From Candidatus Omnitrophota bacterium (lineage in GTDB: Bacteria; Omnitrophota; Gorgyraeia; Gygaellales; Profunditerraquicolaceae): DNA of 64,000 nucleotides. A program made the translations under genes and the position numbers. Location: the NCBI GenBank assembly GCA_963805065.1, contig CAWDSS010000010.1:1048359-1112358 (forward strand). The letters are read 5' to 3'. Below are positions 1,550 to 58,923 of this stretch, in pieces (position 1 is the first letter of the stretch; each line of letters begins with the position of its first letter). The notes beneath the pieces are model-generated. The model worked only from the letters and a program-made list of their open reading frames with translations, was not told where the DNA came from and searched no databases.

Positions 1550-2590
1550 ATGACTGGATACCTCTATAATTTAGCCACGGATAAGCATAAAGGTTTCGTT
1601 TCGGCAATTTTGAAATTAGGTTTATTTATTTTATCCTGTGCCTATGGGCTGGTTATCAGGTTTTTAATTTTATTTAACCGTTTACGGATTTATAAGTTAG
1701 GGGCAGTGGTAATAAGCGTAGGCAATATAACCTTAGGCGGTACAGGTAAAACTGTCATCGTAGAGTATATCTGCCGGTTTTTGCGAGAAAACAACAGGAA
1801 GGTTTCGGTGCTTAGCCGCGGTTATAAAATATCTCATAAAGCAATAGCTGATGAGCCAGGTATGTTACAGGCGAAGCTTAAAGATGTGCCTGTTTTAGTG
1901 GATCTCGACAGGATAAGGTCGGGTAACCTGGCAATAATTAATTATAGCGCCGATACCCTCGTATTGGACGATGGTTTCCAGCAATGGCGCATAGAGAAAG
2001 ATTTGGATATCGTGGTGATTGACGCCACAAATCCATTCGGCAATAATCATATGATACCCAGGGGAATCTTACGCGAGCCGTTATCCTCGCTTAAGCGTGC
2101 CAGTGTATTTGTGCTGACCAAGGTAAATTTTAGCTCTCAGATTGAATCTACGGTTGATTTTTTACGTAAGATTAATCCCTCTGCAGAAGTATTTGAGTCC
2201 CTGCATAAGCCGGTGGGGTTTTATAGCATGAGTAAGCCGCAGGAATTGTTAAGCCCGGAGCGTTTAAAAGGTAAGACTGCGGCTTTATTATGTGGTATCG
2301 GTGACCCCAGCTCATTTGAAAAAATTATCGTAAGCCTGGGGGTTAATGTCGGTTTATCCTTTAGGTTCCCCGACCATTACAATTACACTCAAAAAGATTT
2401 AGATGAAATCGCAAAGAAAATCAGCAATAAAGGCATTGATACCATAATTACTACTGAAAAAGATACAGCTAGACTTCGTAGCTTTCAGCTTTCAGCTTTC
2501 AGCTTTCAGCTTTTAGTGTTGAGGATAACTTTAGCCATAAAAGATGAACAGGGATTCCGTAACAGATTACTTAGCTTATATTCTGTTTAG
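1550..2590 (+). CDS. lpxK: Tetraacyldisaccharide 4'-kinase
   Basis: P-loop SVGNITLGGTGKT, LSRGY, DDGFQ and TTEKD motifs. Contains a GCTTTCA heptamer array near the 3' end. Confidence 0.85.
   Translation: MTGYLYNLATDKHKGFVSAILKLGLFILSCAYGLVIRFLILFNRLRIYKLGAVVISVGNITLGGTGKTVIVEYICRFLRENNRKVSVLSRGYKISHKAIADEPGMLQAKLKDVPVLVDLDRIRSGNLAIINYSADTLVLDDGFQQWRIEKDLDIVVIDATNPFGNNHMIPRGILREPLSSLKRASVFVLTKVNFSSQIESTVDFLRKINPSAEVFESLHKPVGFYSMSKPQELLSPERLKGKTAALLCGIGDPSSFEKIIVSLGVNVGLSFRFPDHYNYTQKDLDEIAKKISNKGIDTIITTEKDTARLRSFQLSAFSFQLLVLRITLAIKDEQGFRNRLLSLYSV
2481..2515 (+). repeat. Heptamer tandem array (GCTTTCA x4 plus GCTTTTA) inside lpxK
   Basis: Read directly: gctttca at 2481, 2488, 2495 and 2502, then gctttta. 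Translated as SFQLSAFSFQLLV. Confidence 0.9.
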
Positions 2591-4490
2591 GCTAATCGGC
2601 AGTATCCTAAGGAAGCTGCCGAAAGGCTTTAGCCTTTTTCTGGGAAGAAGGGTGGGGGACTTATTTTTTTGCCTTGATTGCAAACACAAAGCAATTGCCT
2701 ATTCAAATATAAAAACTGCATTAGGGGATAAGCTGTCAACCGGCCAATTACGTTTGGTTACGCGCAGGTTTTACCGGGCATACGGCCAGAATCTCGCGGA
2801 GATATTTCTTATTCCTAAAATTAACAAGCACTATTTAGATAAATATATAAATATTGAAGGACTTGATAATATTAAACAAGGCTTTGAGAAAGGCAAAGGA
2901 ATAATTTTCCTGGCTGTGCATGAAGGGAGTTGGGAGCTTTCTGGGGTTATGGCCTCTATTTTGGGTGTGCCATTTAATTTTCTATTCAGGGAACAGAAAA
3001 AATTTAAAAGGATAGCTAACCTGCTTAATCAATACCGTACTCAAAAAGGCTGCAAGATAATCCAGCGCTTGGATCAAACCAGGCAATTAATAGAAGTAAT
3101 CAAGAGTAACGAAGCAATAGGCATGACGCTGGATCAGGGAGGAAAAAGCGGCTGCCCGGTGGATTTCTTCGGCCGCAGCGCTTCCATGGCAACCGGGGCT
3201 GTAAGGATAGCCTTAAAATATGAAGCGGTGATACTGCCGATTTTCTTTTGCCGGATACGCGGCCCTTATATTAAACTTTTTATTGATCAGCCGTTTGAAA
3301 TCAAGAATACGGGGAATCGCCAAACAGACATACAGGATAACCTGCAAAGGCTGATACATGTCTTTGAAAAACATATAACCGATTATCCCAGTGAATACCT
3401 TTGGTCTTATAAGATATGGAAACATGGCTTAGACAGGAATATACTCATTTTAAACGATGGCAAGGCTGGACACCTACGCCAATCGCAGGCAGTAGCCGCT
3501 GTTTTAAGCGAATATTTTAAAGAAAATGGCTTAACGGTCAAGGTCGAAACAGAAGAAATACTGTTTAAAAGTAGATTTGCCAAAACGCTTTTGCAATTGA
3601 GCAGTTGCATATCGGGAAAATTCACTTGTCAGGGATGCCTTTCCTGCCTGAAGGTTTTGTTGCACAAAAAAGTTTACGATTCTCTGATAAAGAAGAAACC
3701 TAATGTAGTAATTTCCTGCGGGGCGAGCGTTACGCCGGTTAATTTTTTGATTTCCAGAGAAAACCTGGCAAAATCCATAGTGCTTATGCAGCCGTCAATT
3801 TTGAGTACGGCAAAATTTGATTTAGTGATTGTCCCTGAACATGACAATCCTCCCAAACGTAAAAACATTATTGTTACCGAAGGCGCTTTAAATTTAATCA
3901 ACGAGAATTATTTGAAAGAGCAGGCTGATAAATTATGCAAAACCCTTGGATTAAATAAAGGTTTTTATATCGGTTTACTAATCGGAGGAGACGCCGGGAA
4001 TTTTCACCTCAAGAAAGACACAGTCTTAGAAGTTTTACGGCAGGTCAAATCAGCCTGCGAGAATTTAGGCGCTGATATCCTGGTTACTACTTCCCGGCGC
4101 ACTTCGCGAGAAATTGAAGATACACTAAAAGAGGAACTTCGGGGTTACAGTAACTGTAAAATGCTGATTATTGCCAATGAGAAAAACATCCCTGAAGCTG
4201 TAGGCGGAATCCTCGGCTTAAGCCAGATTGTCATTACATCTGCGGAAAGTATCTCCATGATTTCAGAAGCAGCCAGCAGCAAAAAATACGTATTGGTTTT
4301 TACATCCGCTAACCTGGATAAGAAACACGCCAGGTTCCTGAAGAATTTTTCTCAAAAACAATACATACGCTTGATAGAGAACGCCTCTGATTTAAAAAAG
4401 AATATCGAAGAAGTCTGGTTTGATAAGCCAGGAATTCGCGTTCTCTCTGATAGCGCTGCCATAAAAGAGGCGGTAAAGAGAATTTTCTGA
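2544..4490 (+). CDS. Fusion: lipid A lauroyl/myristoyl acyltransferase (LpxL/HtrB-like) N-terminal half plus ELM1/DUF1022-like C-terminal half
   Basis: N-terminal half has the LpxL-like layout (AVHEGSWEL with the H-x4-E type acyltransferase motif). C-terminal half begins ILILNDGKAGHLRQSQAVA and has DLVIVPEHD, typical of the ELM1/DUF1022 family. Overlaps lpxK by 47 nt. Confidence 0.7.
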   Translation: MNRDSVTDYLAYILFRLIGSILRKLPKGFSLFLGRRVGDLFFCLDCKHKAIAYSNIKTALGDKLSTGQLRLVTRRFYRAYGQNLAEIFLIPKINKHYLDKYINIEGLDNIKQGFEKGKGIIFLAVHEGSWELSGVMASILGVPFNFLFREQKKFKRIANLLNQYRTQKGCKIIQRLDQTRQLIEVIKSNEAIGMTLDQGGKSGCPVDFFGRSASMATGAVRIALKYEAVILPIFFCRIRGPYIKLFIDQPFEIKNTGNRQTDIQDNLQRLIHVFEKHITDYPSEYLWSYKIWKHGLDRNILILNDGKAGHLRQSQAVAAVLSEYFKENGLTVKVETEEILFKSRFAKTLLQLSSCISGKFTCQGCLSCLKVLLHKKVYDSLIKKKPNVVISCGASVTPVNFLISRENLAKSIVLMQPSILSTAKFDLVIVPEHDNPPKRKNIIVTEGALNLINENYLKEQADKLCKTLGLNKGFYIGLLIGGDAGNFHLKKDTVLEVLRQVKSACENLGADILVTTSRRTSREIEDTLKEELRGYSNCKMLIIANEKNIPEAVGGILGLSQIVITSAESISMISEAASSKKYVLVFTSANLDKKHARFLKNFSQKQYIRLIENASDLKKNIEEVWFDKPGIRVLSDSAAIKEAVKRIF

Positions 4491-6660: not shown

Positions 6661-7760
6661 ACATTCTCTATATTACAAACCATCTTAATATCGGAGGCAT
6701 TACTTCCTACGTTTTGACTTTAGGCAGGGGTTTAAAGTCTAAGGGTCATAATCTTTATATTGCTTCTAGCGGCGGAGAGCTGAGCGCTAATTTTGCGGAT
6801 AGCGGCATAGTTTACATACCAATACCCATAAGGACAAAAAAGGAAATCAGCCCCGGTGTTTTTATCAGCGCGTTAAAACTTTTAAAACCAATAAGAAAAT
6901 ATAAAATAAATATCATACATTCAAACAGCCGGACAACTTCGGTCCTGGCTTGTTTGTTAGAAAATTTATCAGGGGTGCCTTTTATTTCTACTTGCCACGG
7001 GTTTTTTAAAAAAAGAATTTCTAGAAGAATTTTTCCCTGTTGGGGCAAAAGGGTTATTGCCGTAAGCGAATCGGTAAAAGAGCATTTAATTAATGACTTC
7101 AAAGTTGACGCGAAAATAATTGATGTAATACATAATGGTATAGACGTAGAAAAATTCAAAACGCAAAACGCAAAAGGCAAAAGTGAATTAAAAACAGAAT
7201 TGGGTTTATGGGAAGGGCCGGTAATCGGCATAGTGGCACGGTTGTCGGATGTAAAAGGACACGCATATCTTATTAAAGCAATGCGCGAAGTAATAAATGA
7301 AATACCCCAGGCACAATTGCTTATAGTAGGAGATGGCAAGATTAAACAGGAGTTGGTAAATTTAACTAAAGCACTTGGCATTGGGAAAAACGTAATTTTT
7401 GTCCCATCGGTAGATGACACAATAGGTGTATTATCGGTAATGGATATATTCGTAATGCCTTCGCTAAAAGAAGGTTTGGGACTTTCGCTTATGGAAGCCA
7501 TGGCATATGGCTTGGCAGTAATCGGTTCCGATGTCGGCGGCATAAAGACGCTTATACAAAATAAAGAGAATGGTTTGCTGGTAAACCCGAAAGATACGAA
7601 GGCGTTAGCAAGAGAAATACTGGACCTGATAAGAGATCCGCAAGGAAGAGAAAAGCTAGGAGAGAATGCCAAAATCTTTATCAGCCGTAATTTTTCCCAG
7701 GAAAAAATGACCGGGGAAACCGAAGCGGTTTACTTAAAGTGCATAAAAAATGAACAATAA
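6657..7760 (+). CDS. GT4 glycosyltransferase
   Basis: Start moved to ATG 6657 (ATGA overlap with the upstream stop). MNILYITNHLNIGGITSYV and EGLGLSLMEAMAYGLAVIGSDVGG motifs. Contains an AAAANNN heptamer array. Confidence 0.8.
   Translation: MNILYITNHLNIGGITSYVLTLGRGLKSKGHNLYIASSGGELSANFADSGIVYIPIPIRTKKEISPGVFISALKLLKPIRKYKINIIHSNSRTTSVLACLLENLSGVPFISTCHGFFKKRISRRIFPCWGKRVIAVSESVKEHLINDFKVDAKIIDVIHNGIDVEKFKTQNAKGKSELKTELGLWEGPVIGIVARLSDVKGHAYLIKAMREVINEIPQAQLLIVGDGKIKQELVNLTKALGIGKNVIFVPSVDDTIGVLSVMDIFVMPSLKEGLGLSLMEAMAYGLAVIGSDVGGIKTLIQNKENGLLVNPKDTKALAREILDLIRDPQGREKLGENAKIFISRNFSQEKMTGETEAVYLKCIKNEQ
7151..7185 (+). repeat. Heptamer array AAAATTC-AAAACGC-AAAACGC-AAAAGGC-AAAAGTG inside the GT4 gene
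   Basis: Read directly. Encodes KFKTQNAKGKSE in the inter-domain linker region. Confidence 0.8.
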
Positions 7761-8772: not shown

Positions 8773-10780
8773 AAAAATACTTTTTATAACCTTAAGCAAT
8801 ATCGGAGATGCAATTCTTACGCTGCCGGTTTTGGATTATTTAAAGAAAAGCTTTGCCGGCTCCCAGATTACCGTGATGACGGGACTGCGTGCGAAGGAAA
8901 TTTTTGAAAATGATCCTCTCGTAAAAAATTTGCTTGTTTACGATAAACATGCGAGGCTCCGTGAAAAAATCAAATTATTCCGGCAATTAAAACAAAAGAA
9001 TTTTGATTTAATTGTAGATTTACGTAATAGCTTTTTGGGAAGATTGCTTAGTTTTGGGCGCAGGGGAGTTCTTAGGAGCGCTTCTTTAGTAAAATCCAGG
9101 CATATGAAGGATATACATATGTCTAAAGTCGCCACAAAAATACCTCATCTAGCCGGTAACTCTTTACATGTTACGCCCCAGGATGAAGATTATGTCACCC
9201 GTCTCCTTGAGGAAAACAATATTTCCCAGAAAGATAATTTCGCGGTTATTTCTCCGGGTGCCAGGAGCAATATAAAGAGATGGCCTGCGGAAAAATTTAT
9301 GGAATTAATTTACGGTATTACTCAAACATTTAAATTAAAGGTAGTCTTGGTGGGAGATAAGGATGATGTGCCAATTACCGGCTATATTACAGAGCGCTCT
9401 AAATATGCTGTTACGGATTTAGCAGGAAAGACCAGCATCCTTCAGTTGGCTGCTTTGTTAAAAAGGGCAAAGGCCTTAATTTGTAATGACAGCGCTAGTA
9501 TGCATTTAGCCAGTTACCTTAATATACCAGTGGTGGCATTATTCGGGCCTACAGATGAAACAAAATACGGGCCGTGGTCCAAAACTTCAGTAACCGTAAA
9601 AAAAGAAATCTCCTGCAGGCCTTGCAAAAAAGCGCAGTGTAAATTCAATACCTTAGAATGCATGCATTTGATAAAAGTCGAAGACGTAATGAGGGCTCTA
9701 AATAATGTTTTAGCCCAGAATCCAGAACCCAGAGCCCGGAACCTGGAGAATTTTAAGCGTATACTTATCGCCCGCACAGATAGAATCGGCGATGTCCTTT
9801 TGTCAACGCCCGTAATTAAAGCCCTAAGGGAAAATTACCCCAATGCATATATTGCCATGATGGTTAGCCCCTATGCAAAGGATATAGTAGAAGCTAATCC
9901 CTACCTTGACCAGGTTATAATTTATGACAAGGATACTAAACACAAGAGTTGGGCTAGGTCAATAAAGTTTTCTCAGAGGCTCAAAAATAAAAGGTTTGAA
10001 TTGGCTATTATCCTGCATCCTACAAACCGCGTGCACCTGATAACATTTCTTGCAGGCATACGCAGGAGAATAGGCTTTGACAGGAAACTGGGGATTTTGC
10101 TGACCGACAGGATTAAGCATACCAAGCAGATGGGGCTTAAACATGAATTAGAGTATACCCTGGATTTAATCAGGCATTTAGGTATAGAGCCGGAAAATAA
10201 AAATCTGTTTATACCCATAAGGCAAGAATCAGAAGATTGGGTAGATGAATTATTTAAACAGGAGAGGATTAAAAAAGAGGATTTGTTATTGGCGATTAAC
10301 CCTGGAGCAAGCTGTCCCTCAAAAATCTGGCCCAATGAAAGGTTCGCCGAGGTTGCCGACAGGCTAATTGAAAAGTACGGGTTTAAGGTTTTGGTTGTGT
10401 CCGGGCCAAAAGACACTAGCTTAGCAGCAAGCCTGATTAAACATATGCGCCATAGCGCCCTGGATTTATCCGGCAAAACTTCATTAAGCCAGTTGGCAAG
10501 CTTGTTAAAAAGAAGCAATTTGTTTATATCCAATGATTCGGGTCCCGTGCACATTGCAACTGCCGTGGGAGTGCCGGTAATCGCAATATTCGGCAGGAAT
10601 CAGACGGGTTTAAGCCCTCGTCGTTGGGGGCCGGTTGGCAGAAAAGACAAAATCCTTCATAAACAGGTAGGTTGTATTAACTGCCTGGCGCACAACTGTA
10701 AAAATGGGTTTGCCTGCCTTAAGGCAATAACCGTGGAGGATGTTTACGAAGCAGCTGACCAGATAATGCAGTGTGCTTAA
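8762..10780 (+). CDS. Tandem GT9-GT9 fusion (two heptosyltransferase-like domains in one ORF)
   Basis: Two full GT9 units. Unit 1: ILFITLSNIGDAILTLPVL ... CNDSASMHLASY. Unit 2: ILIARTDRIGDVLLSTPVI ... SNDSGPVHIATA. Confidence 0.75.
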   Translation: MQVKKILFITLSNIGDAILTLPVLDYLKKSFAGSQITVMTGLRAKEIFENDPLVKNLLVYDKHARLREKIKLFRQLKQKNFDLIVDLRNSFLGRLLSFGRRGVLRSASLVKSRHMKDIHMSKVATKIPHLAGNSLHVTPQDEDYVTRLLEENNISQKDNFAVISPGARSNIKRWPAEKFMELIYGITQTFKLKVVLVGDKDDVPITGYITERSKYAVTDLAGKTSILQLAALLKRAKALICNDSASMHLASYLNIPVVALFGPTDETKYGPWSKTSVTVKKEISCRPCKKAQCKFNTLECMHLIKVEDVMRALNNVLAQNPEPRARNLENFKRILIARTDRIGDVLLSTPVIKALRENYPNAYIAMMVSPYAKDIVEANPYLDQVIIYDKDTKHKSWARSIKFSQRLKNKRFELAIILHPTNRVHLITFLAGIRRRIGFDRKLGILLTDRIKHTKQMGLKHELEYTLDLIRHLGIEPENKNLFIPIRQESEDWVDELFKQERIKKEDLLLAINPGASCPSKIWPNERFAEVADRLIEKYGFKVLVVSGPKDTSLAASLIKHMRHSALDLSGKTSLSQLASLLKRSNLFISNDSGPVHIATAVGVPVIAIFGRNQTGLSPRRWGPVGRKDKILHKQVGCINCLAHNCKNGFACLKAITVEDVYEAADQIMQCA

Positions 10781-12390: not shown

Positions 12391-12403
12391 ATACAAGAAG
12401 CTT

Positions 12404-12431
12404 GTGTAATGTGTAAAGTGTAATGTATACA
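12404..12431 (+). repeat. Heptamer array GTGTAAT-GTGTAAA-GTGTAAT-GTATACA (intergenic)
   Basis: Read directly, upstream of the heptose kinase gene. Confidence 0.7.
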
Positions 12432-22744: not shown

Positions 22745-24510
22745 ATAGAAAAGTAAAAAGTAAAAAGCCAAAAGTAAAAAGTTTTGTTATTTTGATTTCA
22801 TTTGTCATTTGTACTTTGTGTTTTGTCATTGGCGTAGCAAATGCTAAGGAAATAGCAATCATCTACTCCGGACAGACCCACGCCATGATTTATCCCTGCA
22901 GTTGTCCTTTTGACCCCGAAGGCGGAGTTGCACGCAGGGCAACCGTGGTTAAACAGATACGAAAAGAATATCCCGATAACCTGCTTTTAGATTCCGGAGA
23001 TTTCTTTGCTGGAGGACTGATGGATGAATACACGCAAAATACCCAGCTTGACATCCAGCGTTCACTGGTAAATCTTAGGGCAATGGAGTTGATGAAATAT
23101 GACGCCGCAGCAATAGGTGACGACGAATTTAATTTCGGCAGCAAAATTTTGCGGGAGAATATTGCCAAGACGAAATTAACCTTTTTATCCTGCAATTTAA
23201 AATCCGACAAAGTATCTTCCTCTATGATTAAAGAAGTCTCTGGGGTAAAAATCGGCATTATCGCAGTAACTACGGTTTTGGCAAAACAAAAATCCGACGA
23301 CCTCGAATTTAATGATCCTAAAAGTGCAGTTTACACGGCAGTAGAAAATCTGCATAAGCAAAATGTAAATATTATTATAGTCTTAAGCCATTTGGCAGAA
23401 AACGAAAGCCTGAATTTGATTAATGATGTAGGGGGAATAGATATTTTAATCGAAGGCCATAGCGCGGCAAATAATAAGGAACCATCTACTAAGATAGGCA
23501 ATACCTTAGTGTTAAGGCCCTCTTGGGAGGGTAAGAGCCTGCAGGCCTTAATTCTTTCGGTTGAAGGCGATAAAATAAAGACATACAAACTTAGAGAGAG
23601 TAAATTATCGAATGCGGTTGCCGATGACCCGCAAATTATTTCTATATTACCCAAATGTTTTTCTGACAATAATTGTAAAAAAGAAGGGTTTGTGGGTTTA
23701 TGTAAAGACCCCGGAGATTTAAAATCCCGGTGTATTTTTAACAAAGCCAATCAGGTGAAGTTATTAATTGTTACGCCTAAAGATTGCCTTGTTTGCGAGA
23801 CAGCACCTATCTCGGATTTCTTAAAGAGGCAATTTCCCGGCTTAAGCATTTCTTACATGTATTATCCTGATAAACGCGTAAACTCACTTATAAAGGATTT
23901 TAACGTCACGGGACTACCGGCTTATTTTCTGGGAAAAGAAGTAGAAATGGAAGGAAATTTTAATGCCCTGAAAGGAAACTTAACGCTAAAAGGGCAATAT
24001 TATATGGTTGCGCCTTATTTTAGCGGGTTCTCTTATTTTTTAAACAGGCAGAAACAAAAAGGAAAATTGGACTTATTTTTAAGCTTGTTTGATAAAGCTA
24101 CGCCACAGCTTTTGACAGTTATAAAGGAATTCAATCCTCAAATACATTTTCTGGCAATTGAGGAATCAGGTAAGTTCGATGCAGCTTCGGGTAGAAGAGA
24201 AGTTGAGGAAGATATGCGTGCAGTATGTGTGCAACAATACTACCCAAAGCATTTCTGGGATTATATCAGCTGCAGGTCAAACAATATCGATAGTTCATGG
24301 TGGGAGGATTGCGCGCAAGGCATTGATTTAAGTAAAATTTTTACATGCGCCAGGGGAAACGAAGGATATTCTTTGTTGAAGGCAAATACCGCAATCACCA
24401 AAGAAGCCCACATCATGATGGGTCCGGCTTATTTACTGGATAACCTTGAAATATTCAGCTCTAGGGGTGCTCCTTCTAAGGATGAACTTAAGAAAATAAT
24501 AAAGAGGTAA
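22741..24510 (+). CDS. Exported 5'-nucleotidase/metallophosphoesterase-like protein with degenerate metal motifs; Cys-rich C-terminal half
   Basis: DSGDFFAG, IGDDEFNFG (in place of GNHEFD), VLSHLA and ILIEGHS align to calcineurin-like phosphoesterase motifs. The signal peptide is encoded by heptamer repeats. Confidence 0.45.
   Translation: MNRKVKSKKPKVKSFVILISFVICTLCFVIGVANAKEIAIIYSGQTHAMIYPCSCPFDPEGGVARRATVVKQIRKEYPDNLLLDSGDFFAGGLMDEYTQNTQLDIQRSLVNLRAMELMKYDAAAIGDDEFNFGSKILRENIAKTKLTFLSCNLKSDKVSSSMIKEVSGVKIGIIAVTTVLAKQKSDDLEFNDPKSAVYTAVENLHKQNVNIIIVLSHLAENESLNLINDVGGIDILIEGHSAANNKEPSTKIGNTLVLRPSWEGKSLQALILSVEGDKIKTYKLRESKLSNAVADDPQIISILPKCFSDNNCKKEGFVGLCKDPGDLKSRCIFNKANQVKLLIVTPKDCLVCETAPISDFLKRQFPGLSISYMYYPDKRVNSLIKDFNVTGLPAYFLGKEVEMEGNFNALKGNLTLKGQYYMVAPYFSGFSYFLNRQKQKGKLDLFLSLFDKATPQLLTVIKEFNPQIHFLAIEESGKFDAASGRREVEEDMRAVCVQQYYPKHFWDYISCRSNNIDSSWWEDCAQGIDLSKIFTCARGNEGYSLLKANTAITKEAHIMMGPAYLLDNLEIFSSRGAPSKDELKKIIKR
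22747..22830 (+). repeat. 12-heptamer block (5 A-rich xAAAAAG-type, then 7 T-rich TTTGNNN-type) encoding the signal peptide
   Basis: AGAAAAG TAAAAAG TAAAAAG CCAAAAG TAAAAAG | TTTTGTT ATTTTGA TTTCATT TGTCATT TGTACTT TGTGTTT TGTCATT. 84 nt = 28 codons (RKVKSKKPKVKSFVILISFVICTLCFVI). Confidence 0.85.
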
Positions 24511-25976: not shown

Positions 25977-27387
<1,411 letters not shown>

Positions 27388-35236: not shown

Positions 35237-36303
35237 AAATTATAAGGCGAAAAAGCTTGATAGTAAAGATAGGTGATGTCAAAATAGGAGGTTGTAATCC
35301 GGTTGCCATACAATCTATGGCTAAGCATAAGACCTCTGATATTGAAAAAACAGTTACACAGTTAAATTGCCTGAAAAAATTGGGCTGTGAGATTGCCAGG
35401 GTTGCTATAAAAGATACTAATGATGCCAGGGCGATAAAACAGATTAAAAATAAAGTAAAGCTTCCGATAGTTGCCGATATCCATTTTGACTGGCATCTTG
35501 CCATAGAAGCAATTGAAAGCGGGGTAGATAAAATCAGGCTAAACCCTGGGAATATCTACAAGAAAGAAGAACTAAAGCAAATAGTCAGTGCTTTAAAATC
35601 GGCTAAAATACCATTAAGAGTAGGTTTAAATTCCGGATCGCTAAAATGCGTAAACTCTAAACATTTAAGTGTACCGGATAAACTTGTGGCATCTGCTTTA
35701 AATTATATAAGGATAATTGAAAAAATGAAATACCACGATATAGTGGTTTCACTTAAAGCTTCTAGTGTGCTGGATACCGTAGAGGCATATCGAAAAATGT
35801 CTAAGCTATGCGAGTTTCCCCTGCATTTGGGAGTAACGGCTACAGGTGCGCCGAATCAGGGAACAATAAAATCCAGCATTGCCATAGGCGCTTTATTAAT
35901 GGAAGGAATCGGGGACACGATAAGAATATCGCTTACAGAAGAACCCGGGCAGGAAGTTGCTGCAGCCAAGGCCATTTTAGAATCTTTGAATTTAAGGCAT
36001 TTCGGGCCTGAAATCATCAGTTGCCCGACGTGCGGAAGATGCGAAGTGGATTTAGTTAAGATAGTCAAAGATTTGGATAAGAAGCTATCAGTCGTCAGTC
36101 GTCAGTCGTCAGTCAAACCCTTAAAAGTTGCTGTTATGGGTTGTGTTGTGAACGGGCCCGGTGAAGCACGAGAGGCAGATGTAGGTGTTGCCTTTGGGAA
36201 ATCCGAAGGATTATTATTCAGGAAGGGAAGAGCAATAAAAAAAATAGCTTACCATGATATAACAAATTCCTTATTGAAGGAAATGGAGCAATTGAATGCT
36301 TAA
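35233..36303 (+). CDS. ispG: 4-hydroxy-3-methylbut-2-en-1-yl diphosphate synthase
   Basis: VQSM, ADIHFD, RINPGN, CPTCGR and GCVVNGPGEA motifs. Contains a TCAGTCG heptamer array. Confidence 0.95.
   Translation: MKIIRRKSLIVKIGDVKIGGCNPVAIQSMAKHKTSDIEKTVTQLNCLKKLGCEIARVAIKDTNDARAIKQIKNKVKLPIVADIHFDWHLAIEAIESGVDKIRLNPGNIYKKEELKQIVSALKSAKIPLRVGLNSGSLKCVNSKHLSVPDKLVASALNYIRIIEKMKYHDIVVSLKASSVLDTVEAYRKMSKLCEFPLHLGVTATGAPNQGTIKSSIAIGALLMEGIGDTIRISLTEEPGQEVAAAKAILESLNLRHFGPEIISCPTCGRCEVDLVKIVKDLDKKLSVVSRQSSVKPLKVAVMGCVVNGPGEAREADVGVAFGKSEGLLFRKGRAIKKIAYHDITNSLLKEMEQLNA
36088..36115 (+). repeat. Heptamer array (TCAGTCG x3 plus TCAGTCA) inside ispG
   Basis: Read directly. Encodes SVVSRQSSV between the CPTCGR motif and GCVVNGPGEA, where this protein is about 7 residues longer than E. 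coli IspG as I recall it. Confidence 0.85.
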
Positions 36304-47311: not shown

Positions 47312-48445
47312 ATGAAAATAAAACAAATTATAGGGATGATTGTGTTGGTTCTGGGTTCTGGGTTCTGGGTTCTGGGTTCTTTTGCCCTGCAGCAAAGCAC
47401 AGTAAGGGTACTTATTATAGATAAAACGCGATCTCTAAGCCTTAAACTCTTAGGGGATTATGAGATAATCAATTTAAAAGACAGCCAGATTTTATCCAGC
47501 GGCAGGGACCTTAAAACAACAGTAATGGGTTATTATAAAGGTATATTACTTGCCGGAAATAATTTCTCTGCGCAAAAACTTTTGCTTAAAGTGCAAAGCC
47601 AGGACGCAGTCATTATTAACGGCCGCTCATTCAGAGGAGATATCCAGGTGTCTCGAGACGGAGAACTCCTTTCAGTTATAAATTGTATCGATTTAGAAGA
47701 TTATATCAAGGGGATACTTTACCACGAAGCTTCGCATTATTGGCCGATGGAGGCTTTAAAGGCGCAGGCAATAGTTTGTCGTACCTACGCTATTTACGAG
47801 ATGCAGGAGAATAGAGATAAGGATTTTGATGTAACCAGCGATATATATTCCCAAGTTTACGGAGGAAAGACCTCCGAGCGTTTTCGCACCAATGAAGCAG
47901 TTGATGCTACTAGGGATGAGGTTTTAACTTATCAGGGAAAAGTTTTTCCCGCATATTTTCATGCTACTTGTGCAGGTCACACAGAAGATGCATCTCGTCT
48001 TTGGAACATTAATATAGCGCCGCTTAAAGGAGTACTGTGTGACTATTGCAAAGACTCTCCCCATTTTAACTGGCATTTGGTTTTAGACCGGGGGGAGTTG
48101 AGGCAAAGGCTGGTTAATTCAGGTTACTCGATGGGCATGATAAAAAATATCGAGATTTTAGGAAAGGATAATTCTGGAAGGATTACAGATCTAAAAATAT
48201 CCACCATAACCAAGGAAGTAAAAATATCTGCAAAGGATTTTCGTAACATCATCGGGCCCAATGAAATCAAAAGCACAAATTTTGTAGTTAGTTTCGCCGG
48301 TGAAGACTTTGTATTTGAAGGTTTTGGCTGGGGACATGGCGTAGGCTTATGCCAGTGGGGAGCTTATTTTATGGCTACGCAAGGTAAAACCGCAGAACAA
48401 ATCCTAAAGTATTATTATCCTCAAAGCAATGTTAAAACTTTCTGA
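47312..48445 (+). CDS. SpoIID/LytB-domain protein (peptidoglycan remodelling)
   Basis: DYIKGILYHEASHYWPMEALKAQAIVCRTYA, HATCAGHTE and GHGVGLCQWGA motifs. The signal peptide contains a GGTTCTG array. Confidence 0.8.
   Translation: MKIKQIIGMIVLVLGSGFWVLGSFALQQSTVRVLIIDKTRSLSLKLLGDYEIINLKDSQILSSGRDLKTTVMGYYKGILLAGNNFSAQKLLLKVQSQDAVIINGRSFRGDIQVSRDGELLSVINCIDLEDYIKGILYHEASHYWPMEALKAQAIVCRTYAIYEMQENRDKDFDVTSDIYSQVYGGKTSERFRTNEAVDATRDEVLTYQGKVFPAYFHATCAGHTEDASRLWNINIAPLKGVLCDYCKDSPHFNWHLVLDRGELRQRLVNSGYSMGMIKNIEILGKDNSGRITDLKISTITKEVKISAKDFRNIIGPNEIKSTNFVVSFAGEDFVFEGFGWGHGVGLCQWGAYFMATQGKTAEQILKYYYPQSNVKTF
47347..47381 (+). repeat. Heptamer array (GGTTCTG x4 plus GGTTCTT) in the SpoIID-like signal peptide
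   Basis: Read directly. Encodes [11 protein letters not shown] within the N-terminal hydrophobic segment. Confidence 0.9.
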
Positions 48446-49422: not shown

Positions 49423-50667
<1,245 letters not shown>

Positions 50668-50673: not shown

Positions 50674-50736
50674 GCTTTCAGTCATCAGTCGTCAGCTTAC
50701 AGCTGATAGCTGATAGCTGAAAGCTGAAAGCTGAAC
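50674..50736 (+). repeat. Nine-heptamer palindromic element filling the tgt-trmD gap up to the ATG
   Basis: GCTTTCA GTCATCA GTCGTCA GCTTACA GCTGATA GCTGATA GCTGAAA GCTGAAA GCTGAAC, then ATG. 50674-50697 pairs imperfectly (about 19 of 24) with 50701-50724. Confidence 0.9.
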
Positions 50737-54467: not shown

Positions 54468-54567
54468 CTTAAAACGCAAATCGCAAAAGGCAAAACTGGA
54501 ACCCAAAACTAAAAACGTTTTAAGTTTTACGTTGCAGTTTTGAGTTTTGACTTTTTCGTTTTGAGTC
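54468..54567 (+). repeat. AAAANNN heptamer hairpin element centred on AAAACGTTTT
   Basis: The arms meet at the palindrome 54512-54521. The right arm 54516-54558 is the reverse complement (42 of 43) of 56870-56912. Confidence 0.85.
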
Positions 54568-54580
54568 AGGAGTATAAGGA

Positions 54581-55141
54581 ATGTATAAAGACAAGTCGCT
54601 AAGACAGTATCTGGATGATTTAGCTGGGAAACTTCCTGCTCCCGGAGGCGGGTCTGCCGCAGCTTTAAATGCAAGCCTAGGCGCAGCTTTAATCAGTATG
54701 GTAGTAAATTTCACTCTGGGAAAACCTAAATACGCCAAGTTTGAAAATGAATTAAAAGCAATCCTGGATAAGTCAGAAAAATTAAGGAATGATTTTTTAA
54801 ATTTAGTGGATTTGGACGTCACAGCTTATCAAAGTAAGAACGCCAGAAATGCCCTGGATGTGCCTTTTATGGTTGCCCGTCTTTGTTTTGAGGCAATTAA
54901 ATTATGCCCGCCGTTAATTACCAAGGCAAACACAAACCTTGCTAGCGATGTCGCGGTAGCTGCGATTCTTTTGGAATCAGCGTTCACCAGCGCTTATTTT
55001 AACGTGGAAATAAACCTTAAATTCATTAATGATGCAAAGTTTTCCAAGAAAATCAGAAAGGAATTGGCGCAAAAGCAAAAATCAATTAAAAAGATAAGAA
55101 TTCAAACGGAGGATAAAATTGGCAAAATTATTAGAGGGTAA
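54581..55141 (+). CDS. Cyclodeaminase/cyclohydrolase family protein (FTCD C-terminal-like)
   Basis: LRQYLDDLAGKLPAPGGGSAAALNASLGAALISMV is typical of the formiminotransferase-cyclodeaminase C domain. Sits between fhs and folD. Confidence 0.8.
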   Translation: MYKDKSLRQYLDDLAGKLPAPGGGSAAALNASLGAALISMVVNFTLGKPKYAKFENELKAILDKSEKLRNDFLNLVDLDVTAYQSKNARNALDVPFMVARLCFEAIKLCPPLITKANTNLASDVAVAAILLESAFTSAYFNVEINLKFINDAKFSKKIRKELAQKQKSIKKIRIQTEDKIGKIIRG

Positions 55142-55961
55142 ACCTTTAGCTGATAAAATTAAAGAAGAGATAAAACAGCAGGTACAGGCCATGAATAAAA
55201 AGCCTGTATTGGCAAGTGTTCTGGTGGGAGAAAATGCAGGGGCTGAAGTCTATGCAAAATCCCAGAGAAAGAATGCCGAAGGCTTAGGTATAGAATATCA
55301 ATTAAATAAATTGCCCCAAGAGACTAGCGAAACTAAGCTGATAGAGTTTATAAAAGAATTAAATCAGAATAAATCCATAAATGGTATCATCATCCAGATG
55401 CCGTTACCTGCACACATTGACTATAAGAAAATCAGCCAGTATATTCTTCCGGAAAAGGATGTGGAAGGAATGCATCCTGCCAACATCGGAAAGATTGTAT
55501 TCGGAAAGGCAAAGATTTTACCTTGCACCCCGGCAGCAGTCATGGAATTATTGAATTCTATTGGCATAGATTTATATGGTAAAGAAGTAGTTGTGGTTGG
55601 CCATAGTGAAATAGTAGGAAAGCCCTTAGCGCTTTTGTTATTGGAAAAGTTTGCTACTGTAACGGTTTGCCATATCGGAACATCCAAGGCGGGAAAATTA
55701 GAAGAGCATGTTAAAAAAGCAGAAGTTTTAATCGTAGCAGTCGGTAAAGCCGGATTAATTAAGGGCGATTTAATTAAACAAGGCGCAATTGTTATTGATG
55801 TGGGTATAAATAGGGTTGCGGATAAAATTGTAGGAGATGTTGAATTTGAAGCTGCGCAAAGGAGAGCTTCCTATATCACTCCTGTTCCCGGCGGAGTCGG
55901 GCCATTGACAGTAACCATGTTGATGCGCAATGTAGTTGAAACAGCCAAGTCACAACAATAA
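55119..55961 (+). CDS. folD: Bifunctional 5,10-methylene-THF dehydrogenase / 5,10-methenyl-THF cyclohydrolase
   Basis: GIIIQMPLP, PCTPAAV, VVGHSEIVGKP and TPVPGGVGPLT motifs. TTG start after GGAGGA. Confidence 0.95.
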   Translation: MAKLLEGKPLADKIKEEIKQQVQAMNKKPVLASVLVGENAGAEVYAKSQRKNAEGLGIEYQLNKLPQETSETKLIEFIKELNQNKSINGIIIQMPLPAHIDYKKISQYILPEKDVEGMHPANIGKIVFGKAKILPCTPAAVMELLNSIGIDLYGKEVVVVGHSEIVGKPLALLLLEKFATVTVCHIGTSKAGKLEEHVKKAEVLIVAVGKAGLIKGDLIKQGAIVIDVGINRVADKIVGDVEFEAAQRRASYITPVPGGVGPLTVTMLMRNVVETAKSQQ

Positions 55962-55989
55962 TAATATTTAATTACTTGAGGAGATTGAA

Positions 55990-56859
55990 TTGACTTTTAA
56001 AGAAAAATTACAGGCTGGGAAGTTTTTAGTGACATCCGAGATTGGACCGCCTAAAGGCATTGAAACCGCAATGCTTTTGGAAGATGCTGAGCTTATCCGC
56101 ACGCGCGTGGATGCGATTAATGTTACGGATTTACAGAGTTCAGTCATGCGTTTAGGCTCTTTGGTAGTTTGCTCGCTTCTAAAACAAAAAGGCTTTGAGC
56201 CGATATTTCAGGTAACCTGCCGCGACAGAAACCGCCTGGCTTTACAATCGGATATTTTATCCGCCGCTGCTTTAGGCATTGAGAATCTTTTGATTTTAAC
56301 CGGAGACCATACTACCTCAGGAGACCATCCGGAAGCAAAGCCTGTATTTGACCTGGATTCAGTGCAATTATTGCAGGTAGTAGGTAAGCTCCAGCAAGGC
56401 CTTGATATGAAAGATAATAAACTTGAGGGAAGAGCGCCGAAGTTTTGCGTGGGCGCTGTAGTAAACCCTGGGGCTGACCCCATAGAGCCGCAAATTATGA
56501 AGATGGAAAAGAAAATTGAAGCAGGTGCTGAGTTTTTTCAGACACAGGCTATTTATGACATTAAAATCTTCGAAAATTTCTTAAGCAAAATTAAACATCT
56601 TAAAACTACCATACTTGGCGGGATAGTTTTATTGAAATCCGCAGGCATGGCAAAATATATGAATAAAAATGTCGCAGGCGTATCTGTCCCCGACAGTTTC
56701 ATTAAGGAAATGGAAGAAACAAAAGATAAGTCAGCGAAATCCATAGAAATCGCTGCCAGATTAATTAAAGAATTAAAACCCATGTGTCAGGGTATACATA
56801 TTATGCCTATCGGCTGGGACAAGAAAGTTCCGTTAGTATTAGACGCGGCAAGGTTGTAA
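55990..56859 (+). CDS. metF: Methylenetetrahydrofolate reductase
   Basis: FLVTSEIGPPKG, INVTD, TCRDRNR and LILTGDH motifs. TTG start after GAGGAG. Confidence 0.85.
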   Translation: MTFKEKLQAGKFLVTSEIGPPKGIETAMLLEDAELIRTRVDAINVTDLQSSVMRLGSLVVCSLLKQKGFEPIFQVTCRDRNRLALQSDILSAAALGIENLLILTGDHTTSGDHPEAKPVFDLDSVQLLQVVGKLQQGLDMKDNKLEGRAPKFCVGAVVNPGADPIEPQIMKMEKKIEAGAEFFQTQAIYDIKIFENFLSKIKHLKTTILGGIVLLKSAGMAKYMNKNVAGVSVPDSFIKEMEETKDKSAKSIEIAARLIKELKPMCQGIHIMPIGWDKKVPLVLDAARL

Positions 56860-56863
56860 GAGC

Positions 56864-56964
56864 GCAAAACGTAAAAGTCAAAACTCAAAACTGCAACGTA
56901 AAACTTAAAACGTTTTGAATTTTGCGTTTAAGTTTTGCGTTTTGAGATTTGCCTTTTGAGTTTG
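56864..56964 (+). repeat. AAAANNN heptamer hairpin element centred on AAAACGTTTT
   Basis: Centre at 56907-56916. The left arm 56870-56912 matches the reverse complement of 54516-54558. Confidence 0.85.
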
Positions 56965-56979
56965 TTCAGAGGAGGTTAT

Positions 56980-58884
56980 ATGAGTGATCTCACGAATAAA
57001 TCAATAGACATAGCTACGCAAGAAGTCCTCAAGAAGGCTCAGGAAGAGAACATTAAGACTACTTGGGATAGATTGGAATTGCAGGAGCCGCAATGCGGGT
57101 TTGGGCAATTGGGCGTATGCTGCACGGTTTGCAGCATGGGCCCCTGCAGGATTGATCCTTTTGGTGAGGGTGCACAAGTCGGAGTATGCGGAGCAAATGC
57201 CGATACAATTGCCGCAAGAAACCTGGCTAGGAAGATCGCCGTAGGCGCTTCAGCGCATTCTGACCACGGAAGAGACGTTGCGCATGCTTTGTCGCATGTC
57301 GCAGAAGGCCATACGCACGATTATGAAATAATAGATGTAGAAAAACTTAAAAATGTGGCACAGGAATATGGAATTGATGTTTCTAAACCCAAAGAGCAGA
57401 TTGCCAAAGAACTCGGGAAAAAACTTAGCGAGGAATTCGGCAAGCAGGAAGGTGAATTGACATTTTGTAAACGAGCACCTAAGAAACGCCGCGATATCTG
57501 GAAAAAGTTAGGAATAACACCCAGAGGCATTGACCGGGAAGTCGTAGAATTACTGCATACTACCACTATGGGAGTTGACAATGATTACAAGAACATTATT
57601 AATACTGGTATGCGCTGTGCTTTATCAGATGGCTGGGGTGGTTCTATGATTGCCACCGACGCACAGGACATAATTCTAGGTAGCCCCGTGCCCGTAAGAG
57701 GAAAAGTTAATTTAGGCGTATTAAAAGAAAATTATGTAAATATTGTAGTGCATGGCCATGAACCGGTTCTATCTGAAATGGCAGTTAAGGCATCGCAGGA
57801 CCCGGAACTGCTGAAACTCGCGAAAGCTAAGGGAGCAGAAGGCATAAATTTAGCAGGTATATGCTGTACTGCCAATGAAGTTTTGATGCGTCATGGAATT
57901 CCTGTGGCAGGAAATTTCCTGCAGCAGGAATTGGCGATTATTACCGGAGCAGTTGAGGTAATGATGGTGGATGTACAGTGTATTATGCCGGCCTTGCATG
58001 AAATCGCAAGTTGTTTTCACACAAAACTGATTACTACCAGTTCCAAAGCGCGTTTTCCCGGAGTAGCGCACATTGAATTTGATACTAAAGATGCTTATAA
58101 AACGGCAAAAGAAATAATTAAGACCGCTGTAGAGAATTTCCCTAACAGGAATAAGGAAAGAGTGAATATTCCCAAACAGGAAATGGATTTGGTTGCCGGG
58201 TTTACCAAGGAAGTTGTTTTTCAGATTTTAGGCGGTAGATACCGTTCTACTTACAGGCCTTTGAATGAAGCAATTATTTCCGGAAGGCTGCGTGGTTTAG
58301 CAGGCGTGGTCGGTTGTAATAATCCTAAGCAGACGCATGATTATTATCATACCACTTTAGTAAAAGAGCTGATTAAAAATGACGTCCTGGTTTTACAGAC
58401 CGGTTGTTCCGCTATTGCCTGCGCAAAACAGGGTTTACTACTGCCTGAAGCAGCAAAGCAATACGCGGGAAAAGGCTTGCAGGAGATTTGCGAAGCAGTG
58501 GGAATCCCTCCGGTCTTACACCTTGGCTCTTGCGTGGATAATTCGCGCATTCTTACCGCAGCATCTCATATAATTGAAGAGGGTGGTCTCGGCCAGGATT
58601 TATCTGATATTCCTGCAGCTGGCTGTGCGCCTGAATGGATGTCTGAAAAAGCAATCACCATAGGATTTTACTTTGTTGCCTCCGGAGTCTATACCGTATT
58701 TGGCGCCAGCCCCTTTGCCACCCTGGGCAGCAAAAACCTTACGGAATATTTAACCCGTGATTTAGAATCCATTGTAGGCGGAAGGTTTGAATTTTGCGAT
58801 GATCCTCTGCAGATGGCAACGCTGATGATTGCACATATCGATAAAAAGCGTAAAGACCTGAATTTAAAGCCCGCAATGTACTAA
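56980..58884 (+). CDS. cooS: Ni-Fe carbon monoxide dehydrogenase catalytic subunit
   Basis: N-terminal Cys clusters (CGFGQLGVCCTVCSMGPCR), HGHEP, the GICCTANE region and CVDNSR. Start moved to ATG 56980 after GAGGAGG. Confidence 0.9.
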   Translation: MSDLTNKSIDIATQEVLKKAQEENIKTTWDRLELQEPQCGFGQLGVCCTVCSMGPCRIDPFGEGAQVGVCGANADTIAARNLARKIAVGASAHSDHGRDVAHALSHVAEGHTHDYEIIDVEKLKNVAQEYGIDVSKPKEQIAKELGKKLSEEFGKQEGELTFCKRAPKKRRDIWKKLGITPRGIDREVVELLHTTTMGVDNDYKNIINTGMRCALSDGWGGSMIATDAQDIILGSPVPVRGKVNLGVLKENYVNIVVHGHEPVLSEMAVKASQDPELLKLAKAKGAEGINLAGICCTANEVLMRHGIPVAGNFLQQELAIITGAVEVMMVDVQCIMPALHEIASCFHTKLITTSSKARFPGVAHIEFDTKDAYKTAKEIIKTAVENFPNRNKERVNIPKQEMDLVAGFTKEVVFQILGGRYRSTYRPLNEAIISGRLRGLAGVVGCNNPKQTHDYYHTTLVKELIKNDVLVLQTGCSAIACAKQGLLLPEAAKQYAGKGLQEICEAVGIPPVLHLGSCVDNSRILTAASHIIEEGGLGQDLSDIPAAGCAPEWMSEKAITIGFYFVASGVYTVFGASPFATLGSKNLTEYLTRDLESIVGGRFEFCDDPLQMATLMIAHIDKKRKDLNLKPAMY

Positions 58885-58923
58885 GAAAAGTTAAAAGTAA
58901 AAAGCCAAAAGGAAAAACTAAAT
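58885..58923 (+). repeat. Single-arm AAAANNN heptamer array
   Basis: GAAAAGT TAAAAGT AAAAAGC CAAAAGG AAAAACT AAA directly after the cooS stop. Closely matches 22747-22781 and 50958-50992. Confidence 0.8.

Follow-up and report, generated by a model that had tools for sequence, protein, structure and literature searches.

Heptamer tandem arrays with rapid turnover between genes, in enzyme loops and in signal peptides of Candidatus Omnitrophota

A stretch of 64,000 nt from a Candidatus Omnitrophota bacterium (GenBank assembly GCA_963805065.1, contig CAWDSS010000010.1, positions 1,048,359 to 1,112,358 of the forward strand), hereafter called the window, contains many short arrays of tandemly repeated heptamers. 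They are located in intergenic gaps, but also inside the reading frames of conserved enzymes and in signal peptides. This raises the question what these arrays are, how they are generated and how essential genes accommodate them. The reading favoured here, which we judge moderately probable, is that of clade-wide heptamer microsatellites and quasi-palindromes of fast turnover, similar to the short tandemly repeated repetitive (STRR) sequences, which selection has filtered to gaps and tolerant protein segments.

Analysis of the window with Tandem Repeats Finder gave about 20 rows of period 7. Arrays were detected at every coordinate named in the original prediction, which had been made from the DNA letters and had proposed at least 14 heptamer loci, a number that was borne out (Table 1). 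The rows start at positions 2480, 7157, 12403, 22749/22798, 25978/26059, 36088, 47347, 50028/50059, 50701, 50958, 54471/54536, 56866/56912 and 58886; an extra array that had not been listed before was detected at 9714. Exact self-matches at lag 7 extending over at least 12 nt were found nine times in the window and not once in 30 dinucleotide shuffles, which confirms the predicted period-7 excess for these 64 kb. When the same test was applied to lags 2–21, the only other signals were those at lags 14 and 21, both being multiples of 7, two runs at lag 15 and one run at lag 20. With a calibrated arm-detection threshold of 15 matches in 21 positions, 18 arms in about 14 loci were obtained at lag 7, against 0–2 at other lags and 0–2 in shuffles. 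The density of lag-7 arrays amounts to 25 per 100 kb in the window, 16.7 in 221 kb of other Omnitrophota DNA and 1.9 in 1.35 Mb of control DNA from Firmicutes and other phyla, the window being approximately 13 times as dense as the controls. Besides period 7, period 14 alone was enriched in Omnitrophota DNA. The arrays are real and specific to period 7.

Eight of the 18 arms are intergenic, although non-coding DNA represents 5% of the window, and the remaining ten lie within open reading frames (ORFs), where the frame is kept in every case. The array length is 3.5–7 units. Seven hosts were assigned by Pfam (LpxK, a GT4 glycosyltransferase, a GT9-GT9 fusion, IspG, a SpoIID-family protein, Tgt and TrmD), while the Pfam scan gave no family match for the eighth, a secreted protein encoded by ORF 22741-24510. 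The in-frame copies proposed for LpxK, GT4, IspG, Tgt and TrmD were thus recovered in Pfam-confirmed hosts with no frame broken, as were the signal-peptide copies, which correspond to the SpoIID signal peptide and the N-terminus of ORF 22741-24510. In the latter, the A-rich arm encodes a Lys-rich start and the T-rich arm a hydrophobic core (MNRKVKSKKPKVKSFVILISFVICTLCFVIGVANA). The GT4 array (7151) is located in the linker joining the two Rossmann domains. Nine of the ten genic units are free of stop codons in all frames, compared to four of the nine intergenic units; as ORFs have no stops by definition, this comparison is a consistency check only.

Several distinct units coexist in the window, namely AAAANNN, AGCTTTC, TCAGTCG, GGTTCTG/GAAAACC and GTGTAAT. 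Some are reverse complements of each other, as seen for AGCTTTC (2480) and GAAAGCT (50701), and for GGTTCTG (47347, 50028) and CCAGAAC (9714). The four motif groups distinguished earlier hold as such, but the second of them mixes AGCTTTC/GAAAGCT with TCAGTCG, and the locus at 12404 is weak (3.4 copies, 88%).

Arms at separate loci are closely related. The intergenic elements at 56861 and 54466 display 90% identity over 93 nt on opposite strands, the arm at 54536 and the reverse complement of the arm at 56864 being identical at 46/47 positions. An exact 30-mer is shared by the 56864 element and positions 54512-54541 (minus strand). The TrmD array matches the intergenic region at 58885 at 33/36 positions, with the same variant units in the same order, and the A-rich arm of the N-terminal array at 22747 matches this region at 32/34. 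Similarly, the GT4 array and an arm of the 54468 element agree at 26/28 positions, and the LpxK array and the reverse complement of the 50677 array at 33/37. These matches uphold the earlier claim that genic and intergenic copies form one set of families. In the relative L087 (relatives' loci and control loci are numbered with the prefix L), an identical 33-nt arm is common to the Tgt and TrmD elements. Units at most one base apart account for 13.4% within a genome against 4.8% between genomes, an approximately threefold difference (permutation p = 0.001).

The second arm pair of the 54466 and 56861 elements is 81% identical, against 46/47 for the first pair. An equal asymmetry was observed for the Tgt and TrmD elements of L087, where the first arm is identical and the second has diverged. 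No simple model fits the copying of one arm but not the other in inverted elements.

The nearest homologues of the Tgt, TrmD and IspG proteins of the window all belong to Candidatus Omnitrophota, with a best match to Tgt of 67–68% among representative genome contigs. The contigs compared with the window are fully syntenic (NusA-IF2-...-SpoIID-QueA-Tgt-TrmD-L19-...-FTHFS-...-Prismane), and over the same genes the density of arrays in relatives varies from 0 to >4 per 10 kb. Arrays with differing units were found in the syntenic loci L081-L083, L086, L087, L089, L090 and L091. Two relatives are array-poor, L084 and L088; among the fetched loci, L084 is the closest to the window by protein identity. 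A description of L084 as wholly array-free was rejected, as its DNA displays degenerate remnants. Heptamer arrays are not confined to this genome; they are common in related Omnitrophota, many of which carry them, but their distribution is uneven.

Recurrent sites, occupied by different units from genome to genome, are the N-terminus of SpoIID, the loops of Tgt and TrmD, and the spacers tgt-trmD and FTHFS-FTCD. At the SpoIID signal-peptide site, GGTTCTG is present in the window, GTTCTCT in L089, AAGTTAT/ATAACTC in L087, AAAATTC/GATTTTT in L081 and a degenerate AGCCTTA in L084. The TrmD loop carries AAAAGTC in the window, AAAAGTA in L089, GAGAACC in L081, two arms (GGTTATC + GAnnACC) in L087 and L091, a period-8 array in L086 and remnants broken by a palindrome in L084. 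The Tgt loop is built from GGTTCTG + GAAAACC in the window, GGTTCTC + GAACACC in L081 and L086, and GGTTATC + GAACACC in L087, and has no array in L084, L088 and L089. For LpxK, a metagenome scan yielded 5–6 useful relatives. The corresponding 12 residues derive from AGCTTTC units in the window, from TTACGAG in L094, from ACAACTT in L095 and L097, and from a non-repeat sequence of identical length in L096. In the tgt-trmD spacer of relatives, either other arrays are present or the genes abut.

Compared with L084, the elements at 54468, 56864 and 58885 are cleanly inserted between a stop codon and the next ribosome-binding site or start codon; for the 56864 element, this also holds against L081. 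At the L084 junction matching the 54468 element, the genes overlap and the element is absent. By eye, no target-site duplication was evident at the 54466, 56861 and 58885 junctions compared with L084. The arms of 54466 and 56861 are inverted repeats along their whole length. In addition, L091 and L090 have a 76-nt hairpin between tgt and trmD that L087 lacks. Presence/absence polymorphism among relatives is thus established. Identical arrays were found in L081, L082 and L083, contigs that were assembled independently from three samples.

Turnover is fast. Two Tgt proteins may agree at 96–97% of positions outside the loop and still have loops that are unrelated and unequal in length. L087 and L091 share 93% nucleotide identity across tgt-trmD, yet their Tgt arrays differ. 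The Tgt array of L091 (AGTTCAT x4) resembles an expansion of the native GAGTCCATA of L090.

The effect on proteins was analysed in orthologues that are related to one another, so that the counts given here are not independent. Among 120 Tgt orthologues, the loop measures 7 aa (27 sequences), 13–14 aa (28), 21–22 aa (23) or 24 aa (12), and its amino-acid self-identity is 0.26 at lag 7 versus 0.03–0.07 at other lags. The loops of 77 non-Omnitrophota Tgt are unimodal in length with 7–11 aa. TrmD loops (120 orthologues) show a lag-7 identity of 0.28 and length classes of 10–12, 17–19 and 27 aa. In IspG the lag-7 identity is 0.30, the loop measures exactly 12 aa in 94 of 119 Omnitrophota, and the repeated tripeptide co-varies by lineage (LSTIDYR-LST, LSTVNCQ-LST, LKTENWQ-LKT). 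Wherever the DNA was fetched, period-7 DNA was found behind these loops, for example (GACTATC)x4 in IspG of L093. Solved structures from unrelated taxa are shorter at these sites, by 8–9 aa for Tgt, by 5 aa for TrmD and by 5 aa for IspG (Aquifex). Together with the Tgt loops from outside the phylum, this shows that the residues are missing from unrelated taxa, as the original prediction required.

In an AlphaFold model of Tgt built on a 117-sequence alignment (pLDDT 85, pTM 0.88), the extra segment is the sole long coil of low confidence, located between helix 153-176 and strand 194-199. The extra Tgt segment measures exactly 42 nt, i.e. six units or 14 codons, in all four carriers. The baseline loop VFGEHRQ corresponds to the 21-aa loop (V-LGSRFSV-LG-EHRTPNT-EHRQ) less one 7-aa period per arm. 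With a unit of 7 nt, only three-unit steps keep the reading frame, and the comparison of loops suggests that those of Tgt may grow and shrink by such steps from a native seed. An insertion does not apply everywhere, however. In LpxK, IspG and the SpoIID signal peptide, the array segment has the same length as the non-repeat or otherwise repeated segment of relatives. Several genic arrays are therefore not simple insertions, as the unchanged length of the LpxK segment indicates. The genic arrays are found in signal peptides, interdomain linkers, the Tgt loop modelled as disordered and segments that vary between orthologues. Judging from the encoded peptides, repeat hairpins may supply or replace signal peptides, as the arrays at protein N-termini suggest.

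Signal-peptide-like two-arm arrays at gene starts were observed in the window (22741-22850), in L081 (L081:7773-7985) and in L087 (L087:4105-4299). The Lys-rich N-region is derived from the A-rich arm and the hydrophobic core from the T-rich arm.

The step is usually but not always 7 nt, since a period-8 array (AACTCGCG x3.5) is present in the TrmD loop of L086 (L086:11319-11426, 46.5% GC). An 8-aa periodicity was also noticed in some Tgt loops (VTKSLGHQ-VTKSGQRQ). After the Prismane gene, the position occupied by an A-rich heptamer arm in the window is filled in L081 (L081:20815-20900) by a GC-rich palindromic insert without heptamer period (GGGACGGTTCTTAACTCAATCGGAGAACTGTCCC...GGGACACTTCTCCGAACAAATTGAGAACCGTCCC), and by nothing in L084.

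A second repeat was encountered in relatives, a 21-nt GC-rich palindrome (CCTGCCTCACCGGCAGGCAGG or CCAGCCTGTCCGGCAGGCAGG) set exactly between heptamer units of IspG, TrmD and Tgt, with sites at L092:780-1892 (IspG) and L084:11310-11381 (TrmD). It adds 7 aa (LPAGRQG, LSGRQ, PACRSGR) and is represented in peptides P0079, P0046, P0023, P0096, P0082, P0132, P0163, P0255, P0258, P0275, P0281 and P0352. It has the look of a very small independent mobile element with the arrays as homing sites. A search for this palindrome in the window gave nothing above chance.

Imperfect hairpins formed by complementary arms had been predicted for the intergenic copies, and were evaluated as z-scores against shuffled sequences. 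Strong folds were obtained for three intergenic regions, 54466 (z -4.5), 56861 (z -4.7) and 50677 (z -4.7). In the last of these the array is self-complementary because its unit holds the palindrome CAGCTG. The Tgt insert gave a moderate fold (z -2.2), and the long imperfect hairpin of region 25971 is weak (z -1.2). Single arms, including those at 12403 and 58885, have no significant fold compared to shuffles, and a hairpin at the two-arm N-terminal locus 22743 was ruled out (z +1.6). Hairpins of relatives reach z-scores of -3.9 to -9.3. Inside the 54468 and 56864 elements, the arms are approximately 78% complementary to each other. The hairpin stems regularly alternate 5 bp of helix with a 2-nt mismatch, so that each 7-nt period holds one short helix. 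Being long, AU-rich and regularly mismatched, they are unlike the short GC-rich stem and U tract of an intrinsic terminator. A canonical terminator was considered and rejected: the hairpin loci were not called, and the nine terminator-like sites found equal the expectation (9.0). A scan of the window against Rfam 15 gave 0 matches.

Among the controls, a Clostridia metagenome-assembled genome contains two near-identical hairpins of about 100 nt just upstream of tgt (L064:8095-8200 and L064:9860-9965). Their arms are AATGAAT/ATTCATT heptamer arrays (z -3.7 and -3.2), and the heptamer-armed hairpin architecture is thus not unique to Omnitrophota. AATTGAA arrays without structure were seen in Cloacimonadota (L020).

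The mechanism of array origin is inferred rather than demonstrated. According to the favoured reading, arrays would start from short native seed sequences, and slippage during replication, in steps of 7 nt, would keep them homogeneous. The complementary arms and the copies elsewhere could be products of template switching or of gene conversion from one array to another. Purifying selection would spare intergenic copies lying between a stop codon and the next ribosome-binding site; in genes, the survivors would be those with units free of stops in all three frames and with length changes divisible by 3 nt. The arrays would then be chiefly a by-product, mutational or selfish, and not host machinery. 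Hypervariable loops of 7-aa period in housekeeping enzymes and recycled signal peptides would be their visible consequences, together with long AU-rich hairpins in polycistronic transcripts, which probably affect mRNA processing or stability.

Several points weigh against this reading. Slippage was deduced from the comparison of sequences and not from reads or populations. Single-unit steps in the essential genes trmD and ispG would be frameshifts; three-unit or paired changes are needed, and these are not obviously favoured by ordinary slippage. The fixed-length replacement by unrelated units in LpxK and SpoIID looks like overwriting from elsewhere, and the near-identical arms that occur in either orientation at distinct loci are accounted for by a transposition-like process at least as readily as by template switching. 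The reading does not account for the step of 7 nt, and one relative (L086) has a period-8 array at its TrmD site. The basis is also narrow, the arrays of the window resting on a single assembly and the source genome being seen here through 64 kb only.

The main rival is a system in which the arrays represent the internal structure of non-autonomous mobile elements, resembling miniature inverted-repeat transposable elements, repetitive extragenic palindromic (REP) doublets forming hairpins (REPINs) or Rickettsia palindromic elements (RPEs), and moved by a trans-acting enzyme. We consider it possible, though rather on the unlikely side. A preference of the enzyme for existing arrays or hairpins would lead to recurrent sites and to overwriting by the active variant of each genome. 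It is favoured by dispersed copies that keep the order of variant units in both orientations (46/47, 33/36, 32/34), the clean stop-codon-to-ribosome-binding-site insertions relative to L084, the 76-nt hairpin that is present or absent between 93%-identical genomes and the identical 33-nt arm in two genes of L087. The genome-specific units common to several loci, the fixed-length overwriting by unrelated units, the precise placement of the 21-nt palindrome between heptamer units in the IspG, TrmD and Tgt of relatives and the two near-identical heptamer-armed hairpins of the Clostridia genome point in the same direction. Mobility fits less well with the many unrelated units present side by side without a common terminal sequence, with junctions lacking an evident target-site duplication relative to L084, and with the 54466 and 56861 copies, which share one arm only and not the whole element. 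At least one array (L091) looks like an expansion of local native sequence, and baseline Tgt loops resemble one-unit versions of the long ones. Moreover, neither the window nor the syntenic loci fetched from relatives encode a transposase, an integrase or a reverse transcriptase. A further idea, which we regard as unlikely, is that certain Omnitrophota operate active machinery of their own for writing heptamer arrays at preferred sites, copying them and replacing old ones. Candidates would be a polymerase or primase specialised for this task, a nuclease or recombinase guided by hairpins, or a system of homing mini-elements. If true, surface loops and signal peptides, even those of essential enzymes, would be under continual natural revision in quanta of 7 amino acids, with the 21-nt palindrome as a second mini-element that homes into the arrays, and array-rich and array-poor sisters (the window versus L084 and L088) would differ by the presence of this machinery.

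The hairpins, and perhaps the genic copies too, could instead be selected RNA elements such as intercistronic processing sites (e.g. for RNase III), mRNA stabilisers, attenuators or platforms for protein binding in long co-directional operons, with the 7-nt period as the binding register of a partner. Such a role is in line with the great strength of the folds, whose z-scores lie between -4.5 and -4.7 in the window and between -3.9 and -9.3 in relatives, with the regular alternation of 5-bp helices and 2-nt mismatches, with the position exactly between stop codon and next ribosome-binding site and with the location of every gene of the 64 kb on one strand. It is also in line with the IspG loop, where the periodicity is kept over deep divergence while the unit co-varies. 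We nevertheless hold it to be quite improbable. The same junctions have no spacer in L084 and L088, where genes abut or overlap, and a conserved function does not fit the rapid replacement seen between near-identical strains. Units are unrelated between loci and between genomes, so that no sequence-specific partner is implied; most genic and several intergenic arrays are single arms without structure, no Rfam match was obtained and the hairpins do not qualify as canonical terminators. A role in phase variation, with genes turned on and off by the gain or loss of 7-nt units (contingency loci), is very improbable. As 7 is not divisible by 3, a change of one unit would put a gene out of frame, and phase-variable heptanucleotides have precedents elsewhere, e.g. 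the promoter repeats of the HMW adhesins of Haemophilus influenzae. The hosts here, however, are core or essential genes (trmD, ispG, lpxK, tgt) and not surface or restriction genes, every genic array is in frame, and Tgt orthologues cluster in whole 7-aa length classes and not in frameshifted alleles. It is just as hard to believe in assembly or sequencing artefacts. Short tandem repeats are known to cause assembly errors and the window depends on one assembly, but the frame of conserved genes is kept in all ten genic arms, three independently assembled contigs (L081, L082, L083) carry identical arrays, and dozens of independent metagenome proteins (JGI, ENA, NCBI, Logan) show them as well.

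With the microsatellite reading retained, the arrays can be compared to known repeats. Canonical STRR units from heterocystous cyanobacteria are CCCCAGT, TTGGTCA and CAACAGT. An assignment to STRR proper was rejected, the host of the window being a Candidatus Omnitrophota by its nearest homologues and the units being different. In a broader sense, the arrays resemble heptameric simple sequence repeats (SSRs) and STRRs (PMC4692102, citing Mazel 1990) by their head-to-tail 7-nt units, the presence of several unit types per genome, the period-7-specific excess, the intergenic enrichment and occasional inverted pairs able to form stem-loops. They also occupy the same neighbourhoods in related species with varying length and sequence. 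An excess of heptamer SSRs is known in many bacteria, and their origin has hypothetically been put down to polymerase slippage (PMC4692102, citing Mrazek 2007). The GGGAATC and GGGGAYT heptamers of Xanthomonas and Nostoc, respectively, combine conserved gene neighbourhoods with variable sequence (PMC4692102). Unlike the latter, Omnitrophota units are not G-rich, and no G-quadruplex potential is therefore expected from their composition. Further differences from heptameric SSRs and STRRs in general are that over half of the arms keep the frame within core enzymes or signal peptides, that the loops tend to have lengths in 7-aa classes, that two-arm hairpins dominate between genes and that arms are demonstrably copied between loci.

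RPEs are palindromic elements inserted in frame (PMC10969869). Both systems involve small palindromic repeats that are intergenic as well as in frame in unrelated housekeeping genes, the addition of peptides at fold-compatible positions and a small-genome, possibly host-dependent lineage. RPEs, however, are discrete elements of about 100–150 bp with defined sequence families and a conserved peptide, whereas the Omnitrophota arrays measure 27–100 nt and consist of 7-nt units of many unrelated sequences. Genic copies are 27–67 nt long, their peptides vary with unit and frame, and the arrays change by unit steps and are replaced between near-identical strains. The genic tandem repeats of Borgs are fast-evolving, in frame and composed of units divisible by 3 (PMC9879509). 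Here the similarity resides in pervasive, genome-specific and rapidly evolving repeats, both intergenic and genic, which never break the frame. In both cases the genic repeats make disordered, often extracellular or signal-peptide-associated segments, flanking partial repeats can be read as seeds and nearly all genes are on one strand. Borg units, however, measure approximately 18–21 nt or more, against an Omnitrophota unit of 7 nt with a peptide period of 7 aa, equal to three units. The A-rich repeats of Borgs are exclusively direct, and nearly every one is unique, whereas Omnitrophota arms are often complementary and shared between loci.

The small dispersed repeats of Nostoc punctiforme, reportedly presented by Elhai and colleagues in 2008 (as cited in PMC3116915), are said to be mobile, about 21–27 nt long and nested in other repeats. 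The 21-nt GC-rich palindrome located exactly between heptamer units in relatives of the window is reminiscent of them. However, the window has no 21-nt element, the main arrays are tandem heptamers and not single dispersed units, and the lineage is unrelated to Nostoc. REP sequences are GC-rich imperfect palindromes of 20–40 nt that carry conserved GTAG/CGTC tags and are extragenic (PMC3733652). REP and REPIN elements are mobilised by RAYT transposases (PMC3116915; PMC3733652). The Omnitrophota elements share with them the form of short palindromic hairpins with many copies in both orientations between operon genes, but they are AU-rich, 60–130 nt long, heptamer-periodic, untagged and also found inside genes. 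No RAYT gene was found in the 64-kb window or the fetched syntenic loci.

The arrays had originally been presented as new for a non-cyanobacterial genome. This is too broad, since a heptameric SSR excess has already been described outside cyanobacteria, in many bacteria including Xanthomonas (PMC4692102). The part that stands is the combination of in-frame and hairpin copies; for Omnitrophota, no account of it emerged from the literature searched, nor did any paper that links this phylum with heptamer repeats. What appears to be new is the combination of hypervariable, 7-aa-periodic loops in essential enzymes of many Omnitrophota with concerted evolution of units within genomes and copying of arms between loci.

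The over-representation of period 7 in bacteria and the origin of STRRs have been a question since the 1990s–2000s, with polymerase slippage as the sole explanation offered. This clade of Omnitrophota provides a natural experiment, in which syntenic sisters are array-rich or nearly array-free and dozens of orthologous sites turn over between near-identical strains. The 7-aa length classes of Tgt and the 7-aa periodicity of TrmD, IspG and LpxK serve as a read-out, and comparative genomics could seek the responsible factor, e.g. the mismatch repair status, a polymerase variant or a nuclease. Two aspects are relevant to protein evolution: essential enzymes tolerate the continual rewriting of specific loops, and A-rich/T-rich repeat hairpins may supply ready-made signal-peptide sequence. 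On the practical side, such loops will cause trouble when orthologues are aligned, genes called and strains typed in this phylum, for which metagenomes are almost the sole source.

Table 1. Heptamer arrays and hairpin elements of the window (positions in the 64,000-nt stretch).
Position	Strand	Repeat	Context
2480..2513	+	AGCTTTC x4.9	In frame, near LpxK C-terminus, ORF 1550-2590, peptide SFQLSAFSFQL
7151..7182	+	CAAAACG/CAAAAGG x ~4.5	In frame, GT4 glycosyltransferase ORF 6600-7760, aa 183-197
9714..9743	+	CCAGAAC x4.3	In frame between two GT9 domains, ORF 8762-10780
12403..12426	+	TGTGTAA x3.4, 88% matches	Weak intergenic array upstream of PfkB-family kinase gene 12442-13455
22747..22830	+	AAAAGTA x4.9 then TCATTTG x4.7	Two arms forming the N-terminus of ORF 22741-24510 (function unknown)
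25977..26108	+	Two-arm element: AAAAGGC/AAAAGTC A-rich arm, AT-rich spacer, GTTTTGA T-rich arm	Intergenic, between HMGL-like synthase gene and purA
36088..36114	+	TCAGTCG x3.9	In frame, IspG/GcpE ORF 35233-36303, loop LSVVSRQSSVKP
47347..47380	+	GGTTCTG x4.9	In frame, signal peptide of SpoIID-family protein, ORF 47312-48445
50028..50082	+	GGTTCTG x4.4 + GAAAACC x3.4	Two-arm, in frame, Tgt ORF 49462-50667
50677..50735	+	TCAGTCN x2.5 then AGCTGAA/AGCTGAT x5	tgt-trmD intergenic region, ending at trmD start codon
50958..50989	+	AAAAGTC-type x4.6	In frame, TrmD loop, ORF 50737-51423
54468..54566	+	~95-nt hairpin element, A-rich then T-rich heptamer arm	Intergenic, FTHFS stop codon to ribosome-binding site of next gene
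56864..56963	+	~95-nt hairpin element	Intergenic, MTHFR stop codon to ribosome-binding site of Prismane/CODH gene
58885..58922	+	Single A-rich arm AAAAGTT/AAAAGTA/AAAAGCC...	Directly after Prismane stop codon

Approximately 59 plausible genes were recognised over the whole window (1-64000), all on the plus strand. The GC skew is positive throughout, 95% of the DNA is coding and many neighbouring genes overlap by a few bases. The region 52746-63600 corresponds to a Wood-Ljungdahl-type cluster with synteny conserved across relatives. Its members are FTHFS, an FTCD-like cyclodeaminase, FolD, MTHFR and a protein of the Prismane/CO dehydrogenase family; a ferredoxin, a pyridine-nucleotide oxidoreductase and CODH/ACS would also belong to it, judging solely from synteny with relatives. 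Fusions of envelope-biogenesis domains were observed at 2544-4490, 4570-6660, 8762-10780 and 16652-17566, the fusion types being lipid A acyltransferase with an ELM1-like domain, GT4 with GT9, GT9 with GT9, and LptC with an LptA-like domain.

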